DNA of 18,167 nt from a virus (Duplodnaviria > Heunggongvirae > Uroviricota > Caudoviricetes). The notes beneath the pieces are model-generated. The model did no database searches. It had not been told where the DNA came from and worked only from the letters and a program-made list of their open reading frames with translations. Below, in pieces: positions 7,352-18,167 of this stretch (within the stretch, counting starts at the first letter, position 1; each line of letters opens with the position of its first letter). A program made the translations under genes and the position numbers. The DNA lies in the IMG/VR virus record IMGVR_UViG_2671180353_000009, positions 1 to 18,167 of that record, one strand, 5' to 3'.

Positions 7352-10300
7352 ATGGCAGTACGGATTTCAGGTGTACTGAAAGATGGCGCAGGTAAGCCGA
7401 TACAAAACTGCACCATTCAGCTAAAGGCCAGGCGCAACAGCACCACGGTGGTGGTGAACACAGTGGCCTCAGAAAACCCGGATGAAGCCGGGCGTTACAC
7501 AATGGACGTCGAGTATGGTCAGTACAGCGTCAGTCTGTTGGTGGAGGGATTCCCGCCGTCACACGCCGGGATTATCACCGTATATGAGGACTCAAAGCCG
7601 GGCACACTGAATGATTTCCTCGGTGCAATGACGGAGGATGATGCCCGTCCGGAGGCACTGCGCCGTTTTGAGCTGATGGTGGAAGAGGTGGCGCGTAACG
7701 CGTCCGTGGTGGCACAGAACACGGCAGCCGCGAAGAAGTCAGCCAGTGATGCCAGCACATCAGCCCGTGAGGCGGCAACCCATGCGACTGATGCTGCAGG
7801 CTCAGCACGCGCAGCCAGCACATCAGCCGGGCAGGCCGCGACGTCGGCTCAGTCAGCGTCTTCCAGCGCAGGAACGGCATCAACAAAGGCCACTGAAGCA
7901 TCAAAAAGTGCTGCCGCTGCAGAGTCCTCAAAGAGCGCGGCAGCTACCAGTGCCGGTGCGGCGAAAAAGTCAGAAACGAATGCGGCAGCGTCACAACAAT
8001 CAGCAGCCACTTCTGCATCCACCGCGACCACGAAAGCGTCAGAAGCTGCCACCTCAGCCCGGGATGCGGCGGCCTCAAAAGAGGCAGCGAAATCATCAGA
8101 AACGAACGCATCATCAAGCGCCAGTAGTGCCGCTTCCTCGGCAACGGCGGCAGGAAATTCCGCGAAGGCGGCAAAAACGTCCGAGACGAACGCCAGGTCT
8201 TCTGAGACGGCAGCGGGACAGAGCGCCTCAGCTGCGGCAGGCTCAAAAACAGCGGCTGCGTCGTCTGCCAGTGCCGCGTCAACAAGTGCCGGGCAGGCCT
8301 CAGCCAGTGCTAGCGCCGCCGTAAAATCGGCAGAAAGCGCTGCATTGTCCGCTTCAACAGCCACAACGAAGGCTGGCGAAGCCGCTGAACAGGCCAGCGC
8401 AGCAGCGAGGTCTGCATCCGCAGCGAAGACATCCGAAACGAACGCGAAAGCCTCGGAAACCAGTGCAGAATCCTCAAAAATGGCAGCTGCATCGTCCGCC
8501 AGTTCGGCGGCGTCATCGGCATCATCTGCGTCTGCTTCAAAAGATGAGGCGAGCAGACAGGCATCAGCAGCGAAAGGCAGCGCCACGACAGCATCCACGA
8601 AGGCGACAGAGGCAGCTGGAAGTGCGACGGCGGCAGCACAGAGCAAAAGTACGGCGGAATCCGCGGCAACGCGCGCCGAGACAGCAGCAAAACGGGCAGA
8701 GGATATTGCATCCGCCGTGGCGCTGGAGGATGCGAGCACGACGAAAAAGGGGATAGTACAGCTCAGCAGTGCAACAAACAGCACCAGTGAAAAGCTGGCG
8801 GCAACGCCAAAGGCAGTTAAAACTGTTAAAGATAGTTCAGTTCAAAAAACTGGCGACACAATGGGAGGGCAGTTAAAAATCAGCACGATAAATGCTCTTC
8901 GAATATTCAACCAAGCCTTTGGCCTTATTTTTAGGCGTTCCGAAGATCATCTTCATCTTATTCCGACTAATGAAGGGGAGGGGGAAAATGGAGACATCGG
9001 TTCATTAAGACCATTCTCTATAAACTTAAGATCAGGGTTGGTGTCCATCGGTAATGGACTAAAAGTTGGTGGTAGTGTTACTGGTAATTTGACCGGAAAC
9101 GCAGATACTGCGACCAAGATCAAGACAGCACGTAAGATTGGGGGCGTGGCATTTGATGGATCGGCAGATATCAACTTGCCTGGAGTCAACGCTACCGGTA
9201 ATCAAAACACTACAGGTAATGCTGCGACCGCCACGAAACTTCAGGCAGCCAGAACGATTAACGGTGTGTCATTTGATGGTAGTGCAAATATCACATTGAC
9301 CCCTTCAAATATTGGGGCATTGGCATTAACTGGAGGGACTCTTTCAGGTGGTTTAACTGCTGCTGGTGAGGTTATTTCAAGGTCAGCAAATGGTCTGCGT
9401 ATTGCCTATGGCAACTATGGATTCTTTATCCGAAATGATGGATCAAACACATATTTTATGTTGACAGATTCGGGTAACAGTCTTGGTACGTACAATAGCT
9501 TAAGGCCGTTTATAATTAGTAACCATACTGGCAATGTTACAATTGCAACTAAATTAAACGCGAGTGGTGGTATCACTGGATCTTTATCGGGTAATGCAAG
9601 CACAGCAACCAAATTGCAAACTGCAAGGACAATTAACGGCGTAAAATTTGACGGCTCGGCAAATATTGAAGCGTTTCCGCCAGGTGTTCCGCTGCCGTGG
9701 CCATCAGATACACCACCTGCAGGTTATGCAATCATGCAGGGGCAGACGTTTGATAAGGCAGCATATCCGAAACTGGCTATTGCCTATCCTTCAGGTGTTA
9801 TTCCAGATATGCGCGGCTGGACAATCAAGGGCAAACCCGCCAGTGGCCGGGCCGTATTGTCTCAGGAACAGGACGGCATTAAATCGCACACCCACAGCGC
9901 CAGCGCATCCAGTACGGATTTAGGGACGAAAACCACATCGTCGTTTGATTACGGCACTAAATCCACGAATAACACCGGGGCGCATACGCACAGTCTGAGT
10001 GGCTCTACGGGGTCTGCCGGTGTTCATACTCATGGTAATGGTATTCGTTGGCCAGGAGGCGGCGGTTCTGCGTTAGCATTTTATGATGGCGGTGGGTTCA
10101 CTTATGTCCAGAATTCACAGTATCAAGTAAGCCCGGAGACTTCTTCCTATAGATCGTATTATCAACGTATTCAGACACAGTCAGCAGGTGCTCATACCCA
10201 CTCGCTGTCTGGTACTGCAGCAAGTTCTGGCGCACATGCACATACTGTAGGTATTGGTGCGCATACGCACTCCGTTGCGATTGGTTCACATGGACACACC

Positions 10301-10378
10301 ATCACCGTTAACGCTGCGGGTAACGCGGAAAACACCGTCAAAAACATCGCATTTAACTATATTGTGAGGCTTGCATAA
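7352..10378 (+). CDS. stf: Side tail fiber protein Stf (mosaic)
   Basis: Lambda Stf-like N-terminus [38 protein letters not shown]..., Ala/Ser/Thr-rich shaft, central module of three ~40-aa GNAxTATKLQxARTINGVxFDGSANI repeats, and lambda Stf-like C-terminus with H-x-H motifs ending [14 protein letters not shown]. The track ORF begins at 7208 because of an in-frame upstream Met; I prefer 7352. Confidence 0.9.
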
Positions 10379-10962
10379 TGGCATTCAGAATGAGTGAACA
10401 AGCACGGACCATAAAAATTTATAATCTGCTGGCCGGAACTAATGAATTTATTGGTGAAGGTGACGCATATATTCCGCCTCATACAGGTCTGCCAGCAAAC
10501 AGTACCGATATTGCACCACCAGATATTCCTGCTGGCTTTGTGGCTGTTTTCAACAGTGATGAGGCATCGTGGCATCTCGTTGAAGACCATCGGGGTAAAA
10601 CGGTTTATGACGTAGCGTCAGGGGACGAGTTATTTATTTCTGAACTCGGTCCGTTACCGGAAAATGTTACCTGGTTATCGCCGGAAGGGGAGTTTCAGAA
10701 GTGGAACGGCACAGCCTGGGTGAAGGATACGGAAGCAGAAAAACTGTTCCGGATCCGGGAGGCGGAAGAAACAAAAAACAACCTGATGCAGGTAGCCAGT
10801 GAGCATATTGCGCCGCTTCAGGATGCTGCAGATCTGGAAATTGCAACGGAGGAAGAAACCTCATTGCTGGAAGCCTGGAAAAAGTATCGGGTGTTGCTGA
10901 ACCGTGTTGATACATCAACTGCACCGGATATTGAGTGGCCTGCTGTCCCTGTTATGGAGTAA
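10378..10962 (+). CDS. tfa: Tail fiber assembly protein Tfa
   Basis: 194 aa, [54 protein letters not shown]... near-identical to lambda Tfa as recalled; start overlaps the stf stop (TAATG). Confidence 0.92.
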
Positions 10963-11499
10963 TCGTTTTGTGATATGCCGCAGACACGTCGTATGCAGAA
11001 ACGTGCTGCGGCTGGCTGGTGAACTTTCAATAGTGCGAGTATTGAATGATTTCCAGCTGTTATCGATTTTATGTGTTTTTTGCATGAGGGGATTTCCAAC
11101 ACCTCCCACCGACCATCTAAGATTTTATGCCACTGTCCCTAGGACTGCTATGTACTAGGAGCGGATGTTAAACTCAGACTCGTTTCAGCTATATTGCGTT
11201 TTGAATAATATTCCATCATAATAACTCTTTGAAAAATGTGATCTTTTCATTTATAACACTGATGACTTGCTTATCTCATTGGGATATCGGAGGAGAATAC
11301 TTAACTATGACAAGCCCGATTATTATGACACTGGCTATATTATATAGATTGATATTAAAATGTAGGGTTAGGTTCTTGCCAAGGTGTCAAGATTTACAGA
11401 TAGGTTTAAAACCATATAAATATGTTTTACGGTGAGATACAATACATATTGTAAGGCATAAACGCTTGGTAAAATTTTAATTATTGGAAGAAGCTAATC

Positions 11500-14400
11500 A
11501 TGGAACCCATATCAATTACAGTGGCAACTTATGTAGCAACTAAACTTATTGATCAATTCATCTCTCAAGAAGGATATGGTTGTATTAAGAAAGCATTATT
11601 CCCCCAAAAAAGATATGTGGATAGATTATATCAACTAATTGAAGAGACGGCAATTGAGTTTGAAGAAACATATCCAGTAGAAAGTGGAGCAATACCATTT
11701 TATCATTCCGAACCATTGTTTGAGATGTTGAATGAGCACATCTTTTTTAAAGAGTTCCCTGACAAAGAGATATTATTAGACAAGTTCAAAGAATATCCAA
11801 GTATCACTCCCCCAACTCAACAACAACTCAGCCTTTTTTATGAGATGTTATCATTAAAAATCAATAATTGTTCGAAGTTAAAAAAGCTACATATCGAAGA
11901 AACGTATAAAGAAAAAATATTCGATATTAATGAAGAGCTCATTCAAGTCAAACTTATTTTACGGTCTATAGATGAGAAACTAACTTTTCACTTAAGTGAT
12001 GATTGGTTAAATGAAAAAAATAGTCAAGCAATAGCTGACTTGGGAGGTCGATACACACCCGAACTCAACGTAAAGCTAGAAATAGCAGAGATATTTGATG
12101 GCCTCGGTAGAACTAATGATTTTTCTAAAATATTTTATTCGCATATAGATAGTTTTCTGGTCGCTGGAAAGAAATTACATAGTTGCGATGTAATTTCCTC
12201 AGAATTATTTGAAATAAACCAGTCCTTAAAAGAAATTTCTGATATATATCAGGAGATTAATTTTTCTAAATTAGATGAAATCCCTATAAATAAATTTAAT
12301 AACTATGTTTCTAGCTGCCAGACAGCTATTGGCGGAGCGGTATCAATATTGTGGGAACTCCGAGAAAAGTCAGAGCAAGTAGGTGAAACCAAGCATTACA
12401 GTGATAAGTATTCATCTACTCTGCGAATGCTTCGGGAATTTGACTATGCGTGCAATGAATTACGTATATTCATTAATTCAACAACAGTGAAGTTGGCTAA
12501 CAACCCATTCTTACTTCTCGAAGGAAAAGCAGGAATTGGTAAGTCTCATTTACTGGCTGATGTGATTAAAAATCGAATTACTTCTGGGTATCCTTCACTA
12601 CTCATACTAGGGCAACAACTTACTTCAGATGAATCTCCATGGTCACAAATCTTCAAGAGATTACAGCTTAAAATCACTTCTCGTGAATTCCTAGAAAAAC
12701 TGAATTTATATGGCAAAAAAACAGGAAAAAGAGTCTTAGTTTTTATTGATGCTATTAATGAAGGTAATGGAAATAAATTCTGGAATGACAATATTAACAG
12801 TTTTGTCGATGAAATCAGATGCTTTGAATGGCTTGGTCTGATAATGTCAGTCAGAACAACATATAGAAATGTAACAATTTCACATGAGAATGTTGTGCGA
12901 AATAATTTTGAAATTCATGAACATATTGGATTCCAGAACGTTGAGTTGGATGCGGTTAGTCTATTTTATGATTATTACAATATTGAGAGGCCTTCATCTC
13001 CTAACCTTAATCCAGAGTTTAAAAATCCTCTATTTCTTAAGTTATTGTGTGAAGGCATTAAGAAAAATGGTTTAACCAAAGTGCCTGTTGGATTTAATGG
13101 GATTTCAAATATTTTTAACTTTTTAGTGGAAGGGGTAAATAAATCATTAGCATCGCCAAAAAAATATGCATTCGATCCCAGTTTTCCTCTTGTTAAAGAT
13201 GCTCTCAATGAAATCATAAAATTCAAATTAGAGATTGGTCGTAATAGTATTTCACTTAAAGATGCTCACTCAGTGGTTCAATCTGTAGTTAATGATTATG
13301 TTGCTGATAAAACCTTCCTCAGCGCCTTGATTGACGAAGGATTATTGACTAAAGGCATAGTGAGAAATGATGATAATTCTACTGAGGAAGTAGTTTATGT
13401 GGCTTTTGAAAGGTTTGATGATCATTTAACTGTTAATTTTTTATTAAATGATGTTGAAAATATCGAAAGTGAATTTAAGCCTGATGGTCGTCTGAAAAAA
13501 TATTTTCATGATGAATGTGATTTTTATATAAAATCGGGAATAGTAGAGGCTTTGTCTATTCAATTGCCAGAAAGGTATGAAAAAGAGCTTTATGAATTTC
13601 TGCCGGAGTTCAGCAATAATCTTAAATTACTAGAAGCCTTTATTGATAGCTTGATATGGCGAGATATTAAGGCTATTGATTTCGAAAAAATTAGACCTTT
13701 CATCAATGAACATGTTTTTAAATTTAAAGATAGTTTTGATCATTTCCTCGAGGCAGTGATCTCTATTTCAGGTTTAGTTGGCCATCCCTTTAATGCTAAT
13801 TTCTTGCATGATTGGCTAAAAGATTATTCTTTGGCAAATCGAGATTCGTTTTGGACTACAGAACTTAAATATAAATATAGTGAAGACTCAGCATTTAGGC
13901 ATCTAATCGATTGGGCATGGGCCAGAACAGATAAAAGCTTTGTTTCGGATGAGTCAATCGAGCTAGTTGCAACTAGTTTATGCTGGTTTTTAACTTCTAG
14001 TAACCGAGAACTTCGAGATTGCTCAACTAAGGCTTTAGTGAGTTTACTCGAGCCAAGAATTCCTGTATTGAGAAAAATAATTGATAAGTTTTATGGTGTA
14101 AATGATCCTTACGTTTGGGAAAGAATATTTGCAGTTGCATTAGGCTGTACATTGCGAACTGATAATATTAAAGAACTAAAATATTTAGCCGAAACTGTTT
14201 ACCAAAAGGTATTTTGTTCTAAGTATGTGTATCCAAATATATTACTTAGAGATTATGCTAGAGAGATTATTGAATTTGCTAATCATCTTGGATTGGAACT
14301 TGAAAGCATTGAATTATCCAAGACTAGACCACCCTACAACAGCATTTGGCCTGACAAGATTCCTTCAAAAGAGGAACTAGAGTCCCTTTATGATAAAGAA

Positions 14401-15954
14401 CCTTATCGGGAACTCTGGAGCTCTATTATGGAAGATGGTGACTTTTCACGATATACTATTGGAACAAATTATAATCATTCTGATTGGTCTGGTTGCAAGT
14501 TTAATGAAACCCCTGTTGACCGTAAGCAAGTTTTTAAAACTTTCAAATGTAAACTAACTGATCAACAAAAAGACTTGTATGATGCCACAGATCCTTTCAT
14601 TTATGATGATAAATGCGAAGGAATTAAATTTGGTCGTGTGGTCGGTAGAAAAGCACAGGAAGAAATAAAGGCGAGCAAGAAATTATTTAAGAATTCATTG
14701 TCATACGATCTGTTAAGTGAGTTTGAAAATGAAATAGAGCCATACCTGGATCATAATAATAATCTGCTGGAAACTGATAAACACTTTGATCTTCGACTAG
14801 CTCAACAATTTATATTCAATCGTGTTATAGAGCTTGGTTGGGATCCGGAGAAGCATGGTAATTTTGACCAACAAATAGGAACTGGACGTGGACGTAGAGA
14901 GGCATTCCAAGAACGGATTGGTAAAAAATACCAATGGATTGCTTATTATGAATACATGGCAAGGCTAGCCGATAATTTTACTCGTTTTGAAGGTTATGGT
15001 GACGAACGAAAGGAAAATCCATACCAAGGGCCATGGGAGCCTTACGTAAGAGATATAGATCCCACTATCTTACTTAAAGAAACTGGAACGAAAAAAATAA
15101 GCAATAAAGAAATGTGGTGGCTTAATGATGAAGTGTTTGATTGGACTTGCTCTAATGAAGACTGGGTTAAAAGTTCTACTACTATAACTAATTCATATGC
15201 TTTTATTGAAGTTAAAGATGATAATGGTGATGAATGGATAGTATTAGAAAGTTATCCATCATGGAAAGAACCAAAAATTATTGGAAACGATGATTGGGGG
15301 CACCCACGAAAAGAGGTTTGGTATCAGATCAGAAGTTATATCGTTAAAGTTGAAGAATTTGAAAATTTTAGATGTTGGGCAATAGCTCAAGACTTTATGG
15401 GCAGGTGGATGCCGGAATGTACTGATAGATACCAATTATTTAATAGGGAGTACTATTGGTCCGAAGCATTTAAGTCTTTTAAATCAGATTATTATAGTGG
15501 ATCTGACTGGACTTCGGTAACAGACCGGGAGTCTGGAGCTAAGATAGCTGATGTTAGTGTCACTTCGATTAATTATTTGTGGGAAGAGGAGTTCGACAAA
15601 TCAAAAATAGAAACTTTGAATTTTTTGAAGCCTAGTAACTTAATCTTTGAAAAGATGGGATTAAAAAGTGGGGAAGTAGAGGGTAGCTTCAATGATGAAA
15701 ATGGAACTATGGTTTGCTTTGCAGCTGAAGCTGTATATGCTTCAAAGCCGCATCTACTTGTTAAAAAAGAACCATTTTTAACAATGTTAAGGGACAATGG
15801 TTTTGAAATCGTTTGGACATTATTAGGTGAAAAGGGCGTTATAGGGGGCTCACTCATATCAAGTCATCATTATGGTCGACAGGAGTTTAGTGGAGCATTT
15901 TATTATGAAGACAGTCAGCTAACAGGAAGTCATAAAACTAGCTTTACGAGATAA
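11500..15954 (+). CDS. Large (1484-aa) P-loop NTPase of unknown function; STAND/NACHT-like Walker A and B motifs flanked by uncharacterised N-terminal (~340 aa) and C-terminal (~1000 aa) regions; candidate single-gene defense protein or phage moron
   Basis: Uninterrupted 4455-nt ORF with GGAAGAAG RBS-like sequence ~6 nt upstream. Walker A EGKAGIGKSHLL near residue ~345 and Walker B-like hhhhD VLVFIDAINEG about 70 residues later. Strongly AT-rich, Lys/Asn/Ile/Phe/Glu-rich composition unlike the flanking phage genes. Confidence 0.8.
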   Translation: MEPISITVATYVATKLIDQFISQEGYGCIKKALFPQKRYVDRLYQLIEETAIEFEETYPVESGAIPFYHSEPLFEMLNEHIFFKEFPDKEILLDKFKEYPSITPPTQQQLSLFYEMLSLKINNCSKLKKLHIEETYKEKIFDINEELIQVKLILRSIDEKLTFHLSDDWLNEKNSQAIADLGGRYTPELNVKLEIAEIFDGLGRTNDFSKIFYSHIDSFLVAGKKLHSCDVISSELFEINQSLKEISDIYQEINFSKLDEIPINKFNNYVSSCQTAIGGAVSILWELREKSEQVGETKHYSDKYSSTLRMLREFDYACNELRIFINSTTVKLANNPFLLLEGKAGIGKSHLLADVIKNRITSGYPSLLILGQQLTSDESPWSQIFKRLQLKITSREFLEKLNLYGKKTGKRVLVFIDAINEGNGNKFWNDNINSFVDEIRCFEWLGLIMSVRTTYRNVTISHENVVRNNFEIHEHIGFQNVELDAVSLFYDYYNIERPSSPNLNPEFKNPLFLKLLCEGIKKNGLTKVPVGFNGISNIFNFLVEGVNKSLASPKKYAFDPSFPLVKDALNEIIKFKLEIGRNSISLKDAHSVVQSVVNDYVADKTFLSALIDEGLLTKGIVRNDDNSTEEVVYVAFERFDDHLTVNFLLNDVENIESEFKPDGRLKKYFHDECDFYIKSGIVEALSIQLPERYEKELYEFLPEFSNNLKLLEAFIDSLIWRDIKAIDFEKIRPFINEHVFKFKDSFDHFLEAVISISGLVGHPFNANFLHDWLKDYSLANRDSFWTTELKYKYSEDSAFRHLIDWAWARTDKSFVSDESIELVATSLCWFLTSSNRELRDCSTKALVSLLEPRIPVLRKIIDKFYGVNDPYVWERIFAVALGCTLRTDNIKELKYLAETVYQKVFCSKYVYPNILLRDYAREIIEFANHLGLELESIELSKTRPPYNSIWPDKIPSKEELESLYDKEPYRELWSSIMEDGDFSRYTIGTNYNHSDWSGCKFNETPVDRKQVFKTFKCKLTDQQKDLYDATDPFIYDDKCEGIKFGRVVGRKAQEEIKASKKLFKNSLSYDLLSEFENEIEPYLDHNNNLLETDKHFDLRLAQQFIFNRVIELGWDPEKHGNFDQQIGTGRGRREAFQERIGKKYQWIAYYEYMARLADNFTRFEGYGDERKENPYQGPWEPYVRDIDPTILLKETGTKKISNKEMWWLNDEVFDWTCSNEDWVKSSTTITNSYAFIEVKDDNGDEWIVLESYPSWKEPKIIGNDDWGHPRKEVWYQIRSYIVKVEEFENFRCWAIAQDFMGRWMPECTDRYQLFNREYYWSEAFKSFKSDYYSGSDWTSVTDRESGAKIADVSVTSINYLWEEEFDKSKIETLNFLKPSNLIFEKMGLKSGEVEGSFNDENGTMVCFAAEAVYASKPHLLVKKEPFLTMLRDNGFEIVWTLLGEKGVIGGSLISSHHYGRQEFSGAFYYEDSQLTGSHKTSFTR

Positions 15955-16062
15955 AAATGAATCTCAGAGCTGAATATATAAGTAGTATTAGAAACCGGGT
16001 TATACTTAAGAAATCAATCTTAAGTGTGGCAGTCGAATGGTAGCTAATATGCTAGCGGCGCT

Positions 16063-16092
16063 AATGCCTGTTTGTTGCTCATAACAGGCATT
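16063..16092. other. Perfect 10-bp inverted repeat (AATGCCTGTT-n10-AACAGGCATT) about 110 bp downstream of the large ORF; possible terminator-like stem-loop or protein-binding site
   Basis: Read directly; no strong T-run follows. Confidence 0.4.
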
Positions 16093-16337
16093 CACTTTAG
16101 TTATGGCAGAAAAGTATACATGCTGGGTTGGGAAAGTGTGAAAGAAAGGAAGATTGCTGCGCCGTTTGTCGTCACGTTTATCTTCATTGGCTATGCAAGT
16201 CGTAATAAAAGGTGGGACAAAACTGAGACACATAAAGCCTCGCAATGGCTTGCAAGGCTTTACATGTTTTGATGTAGTGGGACGTGTGAGCGCAGTGTTG
16301 ATGGGGTAATGCTTTGAATTAGAAGCGGATTCTTATG

Positions 16338-16383
16338 ATTCGTAATGCGAAGGTCGTAGGTTCGACTCCTATTATCGGCACCA
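16338..16383 (+). other. tRNA-Thr 3' fragment (anticodon loop through CCA); probable attR core of the prophage
   Basis: ATTCGTAATGCGAAGGTCGTAGGTTCGACTCCTATTATCGGCACCA shows a T-arm (GGTTCGACTCC), acceptor 3' strand and CCA, and matches my recollection of the 3' half of E. coli thrW (anticodon CGU). No matching 5' half lies upstream, so it is not a complete tRNA gene. Confidence 0.55.
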
Positions 16384-16988
16384 TTAAGAAAATTAATAAC
16401 TTAGCTTAACTTCTCTAAGAAATTGTATCTTCTGTTATCACTTACAAACGCCTATACGTTGTTATGGGCTTTGGTAGTGTAACACGTATGGGCGAGTAGT
16501 TCCCAGGCTCAACCTCGTAACAAGTTCCTTTGAAGCTGGAAGACGTGCCACCGTCTCTAAACCTTCTACCAAAACTCTTAGCAAGATGTTCCACACCTGG
16601 CGCGGTGTCCAATGATGCTACACGTCGTGAGACGTTGCAGAGGATAAACAGGCTAAATGATGGGAAGAGTTTTAAGTGCAATAGTGGATTAAAGCCCACC
16701 TCTTCAAAACCTAACTTGATCGGGAAAGAATCAAGCTCTAGCACGGTTTCGTCCACCGGAGTACAACGGGTGCCTGATAAGAGAAGAACTGCTAAGACTT
16801 CATAGCTTTTGTGAAAAAGCCCTTTTTAGTGGATACGCCTACGGCGCTTATTTTTTGGTATAACCATCAAAGGCGCTTTATGGCTCCTATTGTCTTGAAA
16901 ATGTATCTTTACTTGTATTGTGTTTTATGCGTAGTCTCCCTGTGTAGTATGTAACTTGTTAATTTTCATATGAATACAGAGGCACACG

Positions 16989-17147
16989 ATGAAAAACATT
17001 GCAGCAATCAAACGTAATAACCGCAAGATTCACGCTCGTAAGTTCCTGTCTACGCCAGAAGGAAAAGCCTGGCTAGAGCGTAAACAGAGAGAGAACGAAG
17101 AAAGAAAACTCCTTAGTGAGTTGAAATGGCTTAGAGAGGATTTCTGA
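16989..17147 (+). CDS. Small basic hypothetical protein (52 aa; MKNIAAIKRNNRKIHARKFLSTPEGKAWLERKQRENEERKLLSELKWLREDF)
   Basis: ORF below the track's length cutoff, found by reading; AGAGG-like RBS about 8 nt upstream; composition is helical and basic. No homology recognised. Confidence 0.3.
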   Translation: MKNIAAIKRNNRKIHARKFLSTPEGKAWLERKQRENEERKLLSELKWLREDF

Positions 17148-17434
17148 AAATCTCCAGAACGCAACAGGACGCATTCTAACGCTGTTTTCATTACTCGGTA
17201 TAGGGATAGGTGATGTGTGTTTAATGCGTCTGTGCGCTTGTTTTGTGCCTTATTTTGCATTTTCATAATGCGGAAGAGAACACGGAAAACCTTAAAATTA
17301 ATTATTGGGGTATTTAAGGCTATTTTCAGGTGATTTAAGGGTATTAAACTTGATTTAATTGATTAAAATATAAACAGATAATTATGTATCTTATTGATTT
17401 ATAAGGTTGTTTTTAAGTAAAGGTAAATAAAAAA

Positions 17435-17463
17435 TAAATAGCCATAAATAGCTATAAATACAT
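17435..17463. repeat. Three tandem ~10-bp units (ATAAATAGCC / ATAAATAGCT / ATAAATACA) in an AT-rich region; iteron-like or regulator-binding repeats
   Basis: Read directly; further phased repeats (ATTTAAGG, twice, 21 bp apart) at ~17313 and ~17334. Confidence 0.4.
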
Positions 17464-17487
17464 CTTAATACCTATATCCCTTCCCTT

Positions 17488-17823
17488 ATGGCTAGATTGC
17501 GAGAGGTGCTTAACGCGATTTTCAGCGCCCCCCGATCTGGAAAATCCAGAATCCCCAAATATCAGCAAGGAATTTTCTTGCGTAATCAACATCGTTTTTA
17601 CCTATTAAATCATTACACAGAAAGCCTTTCTGTAATGTCTCTCACTAAACTTTCACTAAACACGAGAATGATCGGTTTTATGTCGGATCAGATGCTAGAA
17701 ACAGCACCACGTCTCACAAGGGCTGTAAGCGATGAAACCAGTGTTTATGCGGGTGCAGGTCAAAATATAGGCCAAAATCCATTTAACATAATAAATGTTA
17801 TATGTGCTAAGGAACACATATAA
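17488..17823 (+). CDS. Hypothetical protein (111 aa), weak coding evidence
   Basis: Track ORF downstream of the AT-rich repeat region; no recognisable motifs. Confidence 0.25.
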   Translation: MARLREVLNAIFSAPRSGKSRIPKYQQGIFLRNQHRFYLLNHYTESLSVMSLTKLSLNTRMIGFMSDQMLETAPRLTRAVSDETSVYAGAGQNIGQNPFNIINVICAKEHI

Positions 17824-18095
17824 CGCCTTGAATTGATGTATCAGTGGAAAAGTGATGGATTTTTTACGTAGGAGCACGAAAGGGCTTCTATTGACTTTTG
17901 TGTGCTATGAAATATAATTAAAGTTTTTTGTTTTTATTGTGTGATGTGGTGGGTTACACAGGGGAATAGATTAAATGGTGTTCTGTTTATACAGGTTTAT
18001 TTGTTAGATCAACAATTTGGCATTTCTAAACAGATGTTTGAACGTTGCCAAATGTCTTGACAACACAAGAAAAGGGCTTGCTATGCCAGGCATTA

Positions 18096-18138
18096 TGAGG
18101 TGTACTGGCAATAGCGGACACTACCATTTGTTCTTTTT
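18096..18138. repeat. 43-bp direct repeat, copy 2
   Basis: Matches 7209..7251; the flanks differ (TTAAGCAGCC follows here, GACGGACGC follows copy 1). Confidence 0.7.
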
Positions 18139-18167
18139 TTAAGCAGCCATCTGATGATATTTTTCCC

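Follow-up and report, generated by a model that had tools for sequence, protein, structure and literature searches.

We analyzed an 18,167-nucleotide (nt) stretch of DNA, hereafter the window, which corresponds to positions 1 to 18,167 of the IMG/VR virus record IMGVR_UViG_2671180353_000009 and carries the gene avs2 downstream of lambda-type genes (the tail genes I and J, the outer-membrane gene lom, stf and tfa). The avs2 gene is a single uninterrupted open reading frame (ORF) on the plus strand at 11500-15954, with an ATG start and 4455 nt that encode 1484 amino acids (aa) plus the stop codon. Its GC content is 34% overall and 26% at third codon positions, compared with 48-56% for the preceding tail genes, and the break in GC content lies near 11150. 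The gene is surrounded by non-coding flanks of 537 nt upstream and 384 nt downstream. No annotated gene (in RefSeq records with the same sequence) and no Pfam-recognizable gene was identified in either flank; the flank ORFs of at least 60 aa had TTG starts only, were unannotated in the same-sequence RefSeq records and gave no Pfam match where tested. A small ORF at 11229-11435 was considered as a partner of avs2 and rejected (TTG start, no Pfam match, unannotated in RefSeq).

Motif searches of the encoded protein revealed a Walker A motif, GKAGIGKS, at residues 342-349 (12523-12546, plus strand), which was the sole match in the protein and places the lysine at K348. The Walker B region VLVFIDAINEG follows at residues 412-422 (12733-12765, plus strand); the Walker B motif itself (VLVFID) spans residues 412-417, and D417 lies 69 residues past K348. 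Both motifs belong to a STAND nucleoside triphosphatase (NTPase) P-loop core at aa 325-427 (12472-12780), the only part of the full protein to give Pfam matches, all of them sub-threshold (nSTAND6 at 18.6 bits, NB-ARC, NACHT and AAA_7). The P-loop is preceded by an N-terminal region of ~340 aa. This region comprises an effector module of about aa 1-160 (11500-11979), with a hydrophobic 'MEPIS' helix 1 (about aa 4-23) and a conserved all-helical core, and a helical extension between effector and NTPase at about aa 161-324 (11980-12471; approximate), which is described in PMC13601566. The NCBIfam Avs2 profile begins at aa 178. A TPR domain and a C-terminal beta-rich sensor occupy about aa 560-1484 (13177-15951; start approximate), following the domain description in the paper on PDB 9O4E. 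Trp and Tyr are moderately abundant in the C-terminal ~1000 aa (2.7% W and 5.0% Y), compared with 0.6% W in residues 1-340. An earlier interpretation made from the letters of the DNA (the sequence-only reading) had described a lone 4455-nt ORF of 1484 aa, these Walker motifs, a ~340-aa N-terminal region ahead of a Trp/Tyr-rich C-terminal region of ~1000 aa, and the lack of a partner gene; our analysis agreed with each of these points.

Searches of defense-specific and NCBI models identified the protein as Avs2. The PADLOC Avs2 model PDLC02164 matched aa 22-1483 with 1751 bits, and the NCBIfam equivalog NF041813 ('AVAST type 2 anti-phage system protein Avs2'), whose cut-off is 1000, reached 1689 bits and matched along its entire length (positions 1-1317 of 1317). 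RefSeq names the same DNA avs2, with identity up to 100.0% in several genomes, and at least 80% of window positions 11000-16400 is present in 87 of 5426 complete E. coli genomes. A PDB sequence search returned one matching sequence, chain A of 9O4E (EcAvs2, 1484 aa), aligned from 1-1484 to 1-1484. The two proteins are identical at 1480 of 1484 residues (99.7%), share their length, both Walker motifs (A and B) and N-terminal MEPIS effector, and differ only by T361A, D484E, Y1252H and S1333G (window to PDB). T361A and D484E are the sole differences from the ATP-bound NTPase of 9O4E, and Y1252H and S1333G the sole differences in the C-terminal 538 aa. None of the four substitutions falls on a residue named as functional in PMC13601566; K348, D981, T1128, R1130, R1132, W1266, E1362, E1364, E1444 and E1462 are all kept, the bridging-ATP and terminase-contact residues included. 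Compared with RefSeq alleles, the window protein showed 1 difference from that of strain 22F46 and 5 from that of ATCC 43886, and all are full length. Thus, judged from its sequence, the ORF encodes an allele of EcAvs2, an AVAST type 2 STAND NTPase, and not a different protein.

The general libraries leave this protein unnamed: Pfam gave sub-threshold P-loop matches only, and a PHROGs search with the full protein gave no match. Both results would suit single-protein immune sensors of a family not yet described, which is what the sequence-only reading had proposed. This proposal was refuted by the PADLOC, NCBIfam and PDB 9O4E matches, and we give it next to no probability in view of the full-length curated Avs2 matches, the RefSeq name and the solved structure of a protein with almost the same sequence. 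The broad class that had been suggested was correct: the full-length Avs2 matches and the 99.7% identity to EcAvs2 attest to an Avs-type STAND protein that senses phage as a single gene. The accompanying claims that the gene was undescribed and could not be assigned to a described family did not survive, since PADLOC, NCBIfam, RefSeq and PDB 9O4E all return Avs2 and the protein is a full-length member; profile searches and full-length identity to a characterized defense family make it a known gene. The sensor domain had also been called unknown, but a TPR domain and C-terminal beta-rich sensor that bind the terminase ATPase domain are already published. The effector, likewise left without a name, is the sole element of the unassignability claim that still stands. 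The avs2 gene is therefore already known, a reference member of a well-studied defense family.

The biology of EcAvs2 has been described by Evans et al. (Nat Commun 2026; PMC13601566). EcAvs2 protects against T7-like, T1-like and Dhillonvirus phages. Proteome screens of PhiV-1 and ZL19 revealed terminase as the only trigger, and two triggers, terminase and Ksap1, were found for Pal009. The terminase ATPase domain alone suffices as a trigger, and purified EcAvs2 oligomerizes with T4 terminase as assessed by size-exclusion chromatography. Cryo-electron microscopy (cryo-EM) at 2.3 Å resolved EcAvs2 as a flat tetramer of C4 symmetry in which each protomer binds one terminase, contacted by the TPR domain, the C-terminal beta-rich sensor and the helical extension; the interface also contains a third, 'bridging' ATP. 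The K348A mutation abolishes defense, and an R1132A/D981A/E1364A triple mutant weakens it (PMC13601566); the Walker A Lys-to-Ala control suggested by the sequence-only reading has thus already been published. Type 2 Avs proteins characterized before KpAvs2 need one protein only (Bechon et al., PMC11564622), which fits the lone avs2 gene in the window.

Carried over from the 99.7%-identical EcAvs2, terminase-triggered oligomerization, toxicity and phage defense would be expected of the window allele as well. In the proposed mechanism, four steps of which have been shown for EcAvs2, the TPR domain, C-terminal beta-rich sensor and helical extension would bind the ATPase domain of the phage large terminase, and the interface would enclose the bridging ATP; other triggers would be Ksap1 and, possibly, vs.8. 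Binding would lead to ATP-dependent assembly of a flat C4 tetramer via the STAND NTPase, with the Walker A residue K348 required for defense. The tetramer would gather four N-termini, and the outcome would be cell toxicity along with protection from T7-like, T1-like, Dhillonvirus and T4-type phages, for which EcAvs2 would require no partner gene. A further step is one that we infer: the ~160-aa N-terminal module may be a non-enzymatic death effector, in which clustering would free the hydrophobic helix 1 (MEPISITVATYVATKLIDQFI) to attack the inner membrane. Taken together, we regard the identification as EcAvs2 and the sensing mechanism as practically certain.

KpAvs2 of Klebsiella pneumoniae (Bechon et al., Nat Commun 2024, PMC11564622) belongs to the same Avs2 family, has the same sensor type and senses large terminase and Ksap1. 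In contrast to the window protein, with its non-nuclease MEPIS module, KpAvs2 has an N-terminal nuclease that degrades DNA. It also needs Avap2 (and Avap1 for some phages) and additionally senses Ksap2 (PMC11564622), whereas the window gene stands without accessory genes. As PMC13601566 describes them, SeAvs3 and EcAvs4 (Gao et al., Science 2022) are tripartite STAND sensors that, like EcAvs2, tetramerize on a conserved phage protein, and SeAvs3 has its C-terminal sensor in common with EcAvs2 and binds the same terminase surface. The same paper sets both apart by their nuclease effectors. It describes SeAvs3 as an elongated rather than flat tetramer that binds the folded nuclease domain of terminase, and EcAvs4 as a sensor of portal. 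The PDB sequence search with the window protein gave no match besides 9O4E, and so none to SeAvs3 or EcAvs4.

Most Avs2 proteins carry Mrr-like nucleases, whereas EcAvs2 has a different N-terminal domain that is invisible in the cryo-EM map (PMC13601566). The authors of that study report that the domain is modular and has no conserved charged or polar residues across 160 clusters; they favor a non-enzymatic role and suggest seeking its interacting partners. The window protein starts MEPISITVATYVATKLIDQFI, and its first five residues are the literal 'MEPIS'. A word-indexed homologue search with the effector gave mostly fragments, and a usable family was obtained by an exhaustive phmmer search with residues 1-175 against 1.84 billion proteins (E ≤ 0.001), which returned 221 representatives. 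In this set the module was always N-terminal where the matched protein was full length, and the partner proteins were about 870, 1200-1300 or 1400-1490 aa long. The module was fused to Avs2 sensors, nSTAND3, NB-ARC-TPR and TPR-GreAB-C-PIN proteins, and these fusions to several sensor classes agree with the published statement of modularity (PMC13601566). Close homologues of the N-terminal region were found in Photobacterium and Vibrio, which fits a low-GC origin. When the first 175 and the first 330 aa were run against Pfam (E ≤ 10), the single match, to Erf4, was spurious. Sequence searches of the PDB with the first 175 and the first 35 aa retrieved nothing besides 9O4E. No Pfam family and no solved-structure counterpart was found for the conserved core of the module.

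A link between this module and membrane-targeting domains has been reported by Ibarlosa et al. (bioRxiv 10.1101/2024.11.07.622273; Nat Microbiol 2025). In their study, the first ~15 residues, the 'MEPIS' motif, were common to Avast2, Bab, Bell and Hell domains and several bNACHT proteins; mutations in the MEPIS region of Avast2 lowered defense against T4, and release of helix 1 to target the membrane was proposed. They also describe a Bab/Agp system, in which the Bell-like executioner Bab is recruited by a TPR-GreAB-C-PIN protein via an amyloid motif. The EcAvs2 module resembles the Bab/Bell/HeLo-type domains in being all-helical and in its N-terminal hydrophobic MEPIS helix of ~15 residues, by the alignment in bioRxiv 10.1101/2024.11.07.622273; our PDB searches did not reproduce this reported motif link to Bab. 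It further resembles Bab/Agp in its association with a TPR-GreAB-C-PIN sensor, which is achieved by fusion for the EcAvs2-type module and by the amyloid motif for Bab. Direct fusion of the module to the class of protein that recruits Bab supports the view that it is an executioner equivalent to Bab, as we infer by analogy. In contrast to the Bab/Bell/HeLo-type domains, the EcAvs2 module measures ~160 aa rather than 80-100 aa and is without a C-terminal amyloid motif, and searches detected no sequence or fold similarity beyond helix 1. Membrane action of the EcAvs2 module is proposed as it is for Bell/HeLo-type domains, and membrane attack by helix 1 is the best available hypothesis, to be held tentatively and at less than even confidence.

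Within the module, the strongest conservation was in the core, not in helix 1: F67 was invariant in a 56-sequence alignment, and across 143 homologues Y68 (93%), L43, I47, L77, P105, F113, L127 and I140 were each at least 90% conserved. Polar residues recurred around a PFYxS motif in the same 143 homologues (S70 83%, T50 80%, K137 80%, E134 75%, K128 73%, E53 71%). This recurrence is somewhat at odds with the published lack of conserved polar or charged residues, in a sample biased to closer relatives. At the N-terminus, M1 was conserved in 74% and P3 in 64%, and positions 4-21 were hydrophobic across 142 homologues (mean Kyte-Doolittle value 1.19). No other 19-residue stretch of the module is as hydrophobic as helix 1, whose conservation lies mainly in its hydrophobic character; the hydropathy scan of the module identified no transmembrane-grade segment (maximum Kyte-Doolittle value over 19 residues 1.12). 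Our searches detected no fold similarity of the module to known pore-forming helical domains.

These observations could also be expected if the protein, still EcAvs2, made no attack on the membrane and its tetramerized core (PFYxS and surroundings) bound or modified a host target, with helix 1 serving oligomerization or autoinhibition. We consider this the main alternative, possible but doubtful. It would account for the peak of conservation in the core, with its invariant F67, for the recurrent polar positions T50, E53, S70, K128, E134 and K137 (71-83%) and for the want of a transmembrane-grade segment or a detected pore-former-like fold, and it is in keeping with the suggestion of the structure authors to look for interaction partners (PMC13601566). 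Against a host target, no polar residue is invariant, the 160-cluster comparison in PMC13601566 found no conserved charged or polar residues and led its authors to favor a non-enzymatic role, mutations in the N-terminal MEPIS region lower defense, and no Pfam or enzyme-like match was obtained. Membrane attack by helix 1 remains our working hypothesis for the killing step.

The position of avs2 in its prophage was defined by two borders. On the left, tfa (10378-10962, plus strand; Pfam Caudo_TAP, 151 bits) encodes a tail fiber assembly protein and is the last phage structural gene; similarity to other prophages ends at, or within about 150 nt past, its stop codon. An Rfam IS009 match (RF02111; 225 bits, gathering cut-off 117) at 10721-10919 on the plus strand lies wholly inside the tfa coding sequence. 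On the right, the attachment-site (att) core at 16338-16385 (plus strand) reproduces, without a mismatch, 48 nt from the 3' end of the tRNA-Thr gene thrW, as aligned to thrW of strain 22F46. ARAGORN detected no complete tRNA in the window, the thrW piece being this 48-nt fragment. In 22F46 and ATCC 43886, a complete thrW and an integrase lie at the opposite end of the prophage. With the copy of the thrW 3' end downstream of avs2 and the complete thrW and integrase at the far end, the element is a lambda-like prophage integrated at thrW, and avs2 is its final gene ahead of attR. A megablast search of avs2 DNA against 50,697 deposited phage genomes gave no match; the evidence that links avs2 to prophages therefore comes from chromosomal ones only.

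The interval between tfa and att was also compared in three sampled E. coli loci with near-identical tfa genes, and different cargo was found in each. The first carried an AAA ATPase and McrC, resembling McrBC restriction (comparison locus L003, 7824-10897); the second a class I S-adenosylmethionine methyltransferase (L004, 7518-8186); and the third a LEM-3-like GIY-YIG protein with an AraC regulator (L005, 7533-9878). The GIY-YIG/AraC locus adjoins the same LysR-pseudogene/paoD neighborhood that flanks the avs2 prophage in 22F46. These data support, in a small sample, a variable cargo slot between tfa and att, as had been suggested from the window letters, and the low GC content of avs2 fits its being cargo. 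We have very high confidence in the overall explanation: the ORF encodes EcAvs2 and is low-GC cargo that a lambda-like prophage at thrW carries between its tfa gene and attR.

Expression signals were read from the sequence upstream of avs2. A putative promoter at 11449-11475 on the plus strand consists of TTGTAA (11449-11454) and TAAAAT (11470-11475) separated by a 15-nt spacer; a TG at 11467-11468 extends the latter to an extended -10 element, TGgTAAAAT (11467-11475). A purine-rich candidate ribosome-binding site, GGAAGAAG, lies at 11486-11493, 6 nt 5' of the ATG. The sequence-only reading had named the same two hexamers, with low confidence, and they are present where it placed them; our consensus promoter scan lent no support and did not list the TTGTAA/TAAAAT site, because the scan accepts spacers of 16-18 nt and the 15-nt spacer falls outside that range. 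Promoter-like sites in the region were not in excess of shuffled sequences (18 found compared with 23.2 expected). The avs2 promoter at 11449-11475 is therefore a candidate and amounts to a guess. A terminator scan 3' of avs2 identified none on the plus strand. An inverted repeat with an 18-bp stem at 16228-16267, past the avs2 stop codon and ahead of the att core, was scored as terminator-like on the minus strand, where it has a T-run, and is followed on the plus-strand side by only TTTGATG. This repeat could provide weak termination of avs2 or block read-in from the host side.

A further rival reading makes avs2 a decaying or silent passenger of a defective prophage, functionless in this strain, and the scan's failure to find a consensus promoter would fit it. 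The carrier prophage in 22F46 is indeed heavily degraded, with integrase and tail-tip pseudogenes and most of its genome missing, and the window itself has a scrambled tail region (5013-7211) and IS600 ends. We nevertheless consider a silent passenger highly improbable. The 4455-nt ORF is intact in AT-rich sequence where stops arise easily, only 4 of 1484 residues differ from an experimentally active protein and none of these is at a functional site, the 22F46 and ATCC 43886 alleles (1 and 5 differences) are both full length, and a candidate extended -10 element and ribosome-binding site lie upstream of the gene.

Several other features were observed in the window. The tail region at 5013-7211 repeats the tail-end module in scrambled form: it contains 241 aa from the C-terminal part of J, another complete copy of lom, 122 aa from the N-terminal part of a tail fiber, and an ORF of 109 aa whose helix-turn-helix is of the resolvase/transposase type. 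Repeats are present at 3458-3757 and 4954-5253 (97%) and at 6453-6571 and 7336-7454 (76%). The 5013-7211 region has the look of a scar left when two lambdoid prophages recombined. A 41-nt unit with many Ala and Ser codons occurs four times within stf (7739-8304), at spacings of 63, 231 and 231 nt, a pattern typical of lambdoid side tail fibers, whose shafts are repetitive. A 48-nt direct repeat, 96% identical between its copies at 7204-7251 and 18091-18138, brackets stf, tfa, avs2, attR and the post-att region. The copy at 18091-18138 sits where other genomes annotate IS600, an IS3-family element that runs off the end of the window; the copy at 7204-7251, just upstream of stf, is thus probably a solo IS600 end. 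Past the att core, 16386-18090 is AT-rich (38% GC) with small hypothetical ORFs only, and at least 80% of 16388-18167 (the post-att stretch plus the IS600 end) is carried by 268 complete E. coli genomes. In ATCC 43886 an IS66-family element interrupts the post-att stretch. The 16386-18090 stretch is probably what is left of another thrW island.

In ATCC 43886, avs2 is carried by a lambda-like prophage of about 46 kb that sits at thrW and is apparently complete (NZ_CP024256.1, 1886411-1932200; comparison loci L006, 1-37001, and L002). It corresponds to the element whose right end is window positions 1-16385, and it encodes a large terminase of 700 aa (WP_000934130.1). In the papers searched, we found no discussion of a terminase sensor that coexists with a terminase-encoding carrier prophage. 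As this apparently complete carrier has its own terminase, either EcAvs2 would be blind to the terminase of its carrier, or the prophage would pay for, or regulate around, self-triggering at induction. A joint proposal, that the effector may act unlike the HeLo/Bell pore-formers, for example on a host target, and that EcAvs2 is either blind to the carrier terminase or triggered at a cost that the prophage bears or regulates around, seems to us rather unlikely. The avs2 gene of this prophage is itself not new, and its interest for specialists lies in the mode of killing by the MEPIS effector and in the presence of a terminase sensor within a terminase-encoding prophage.

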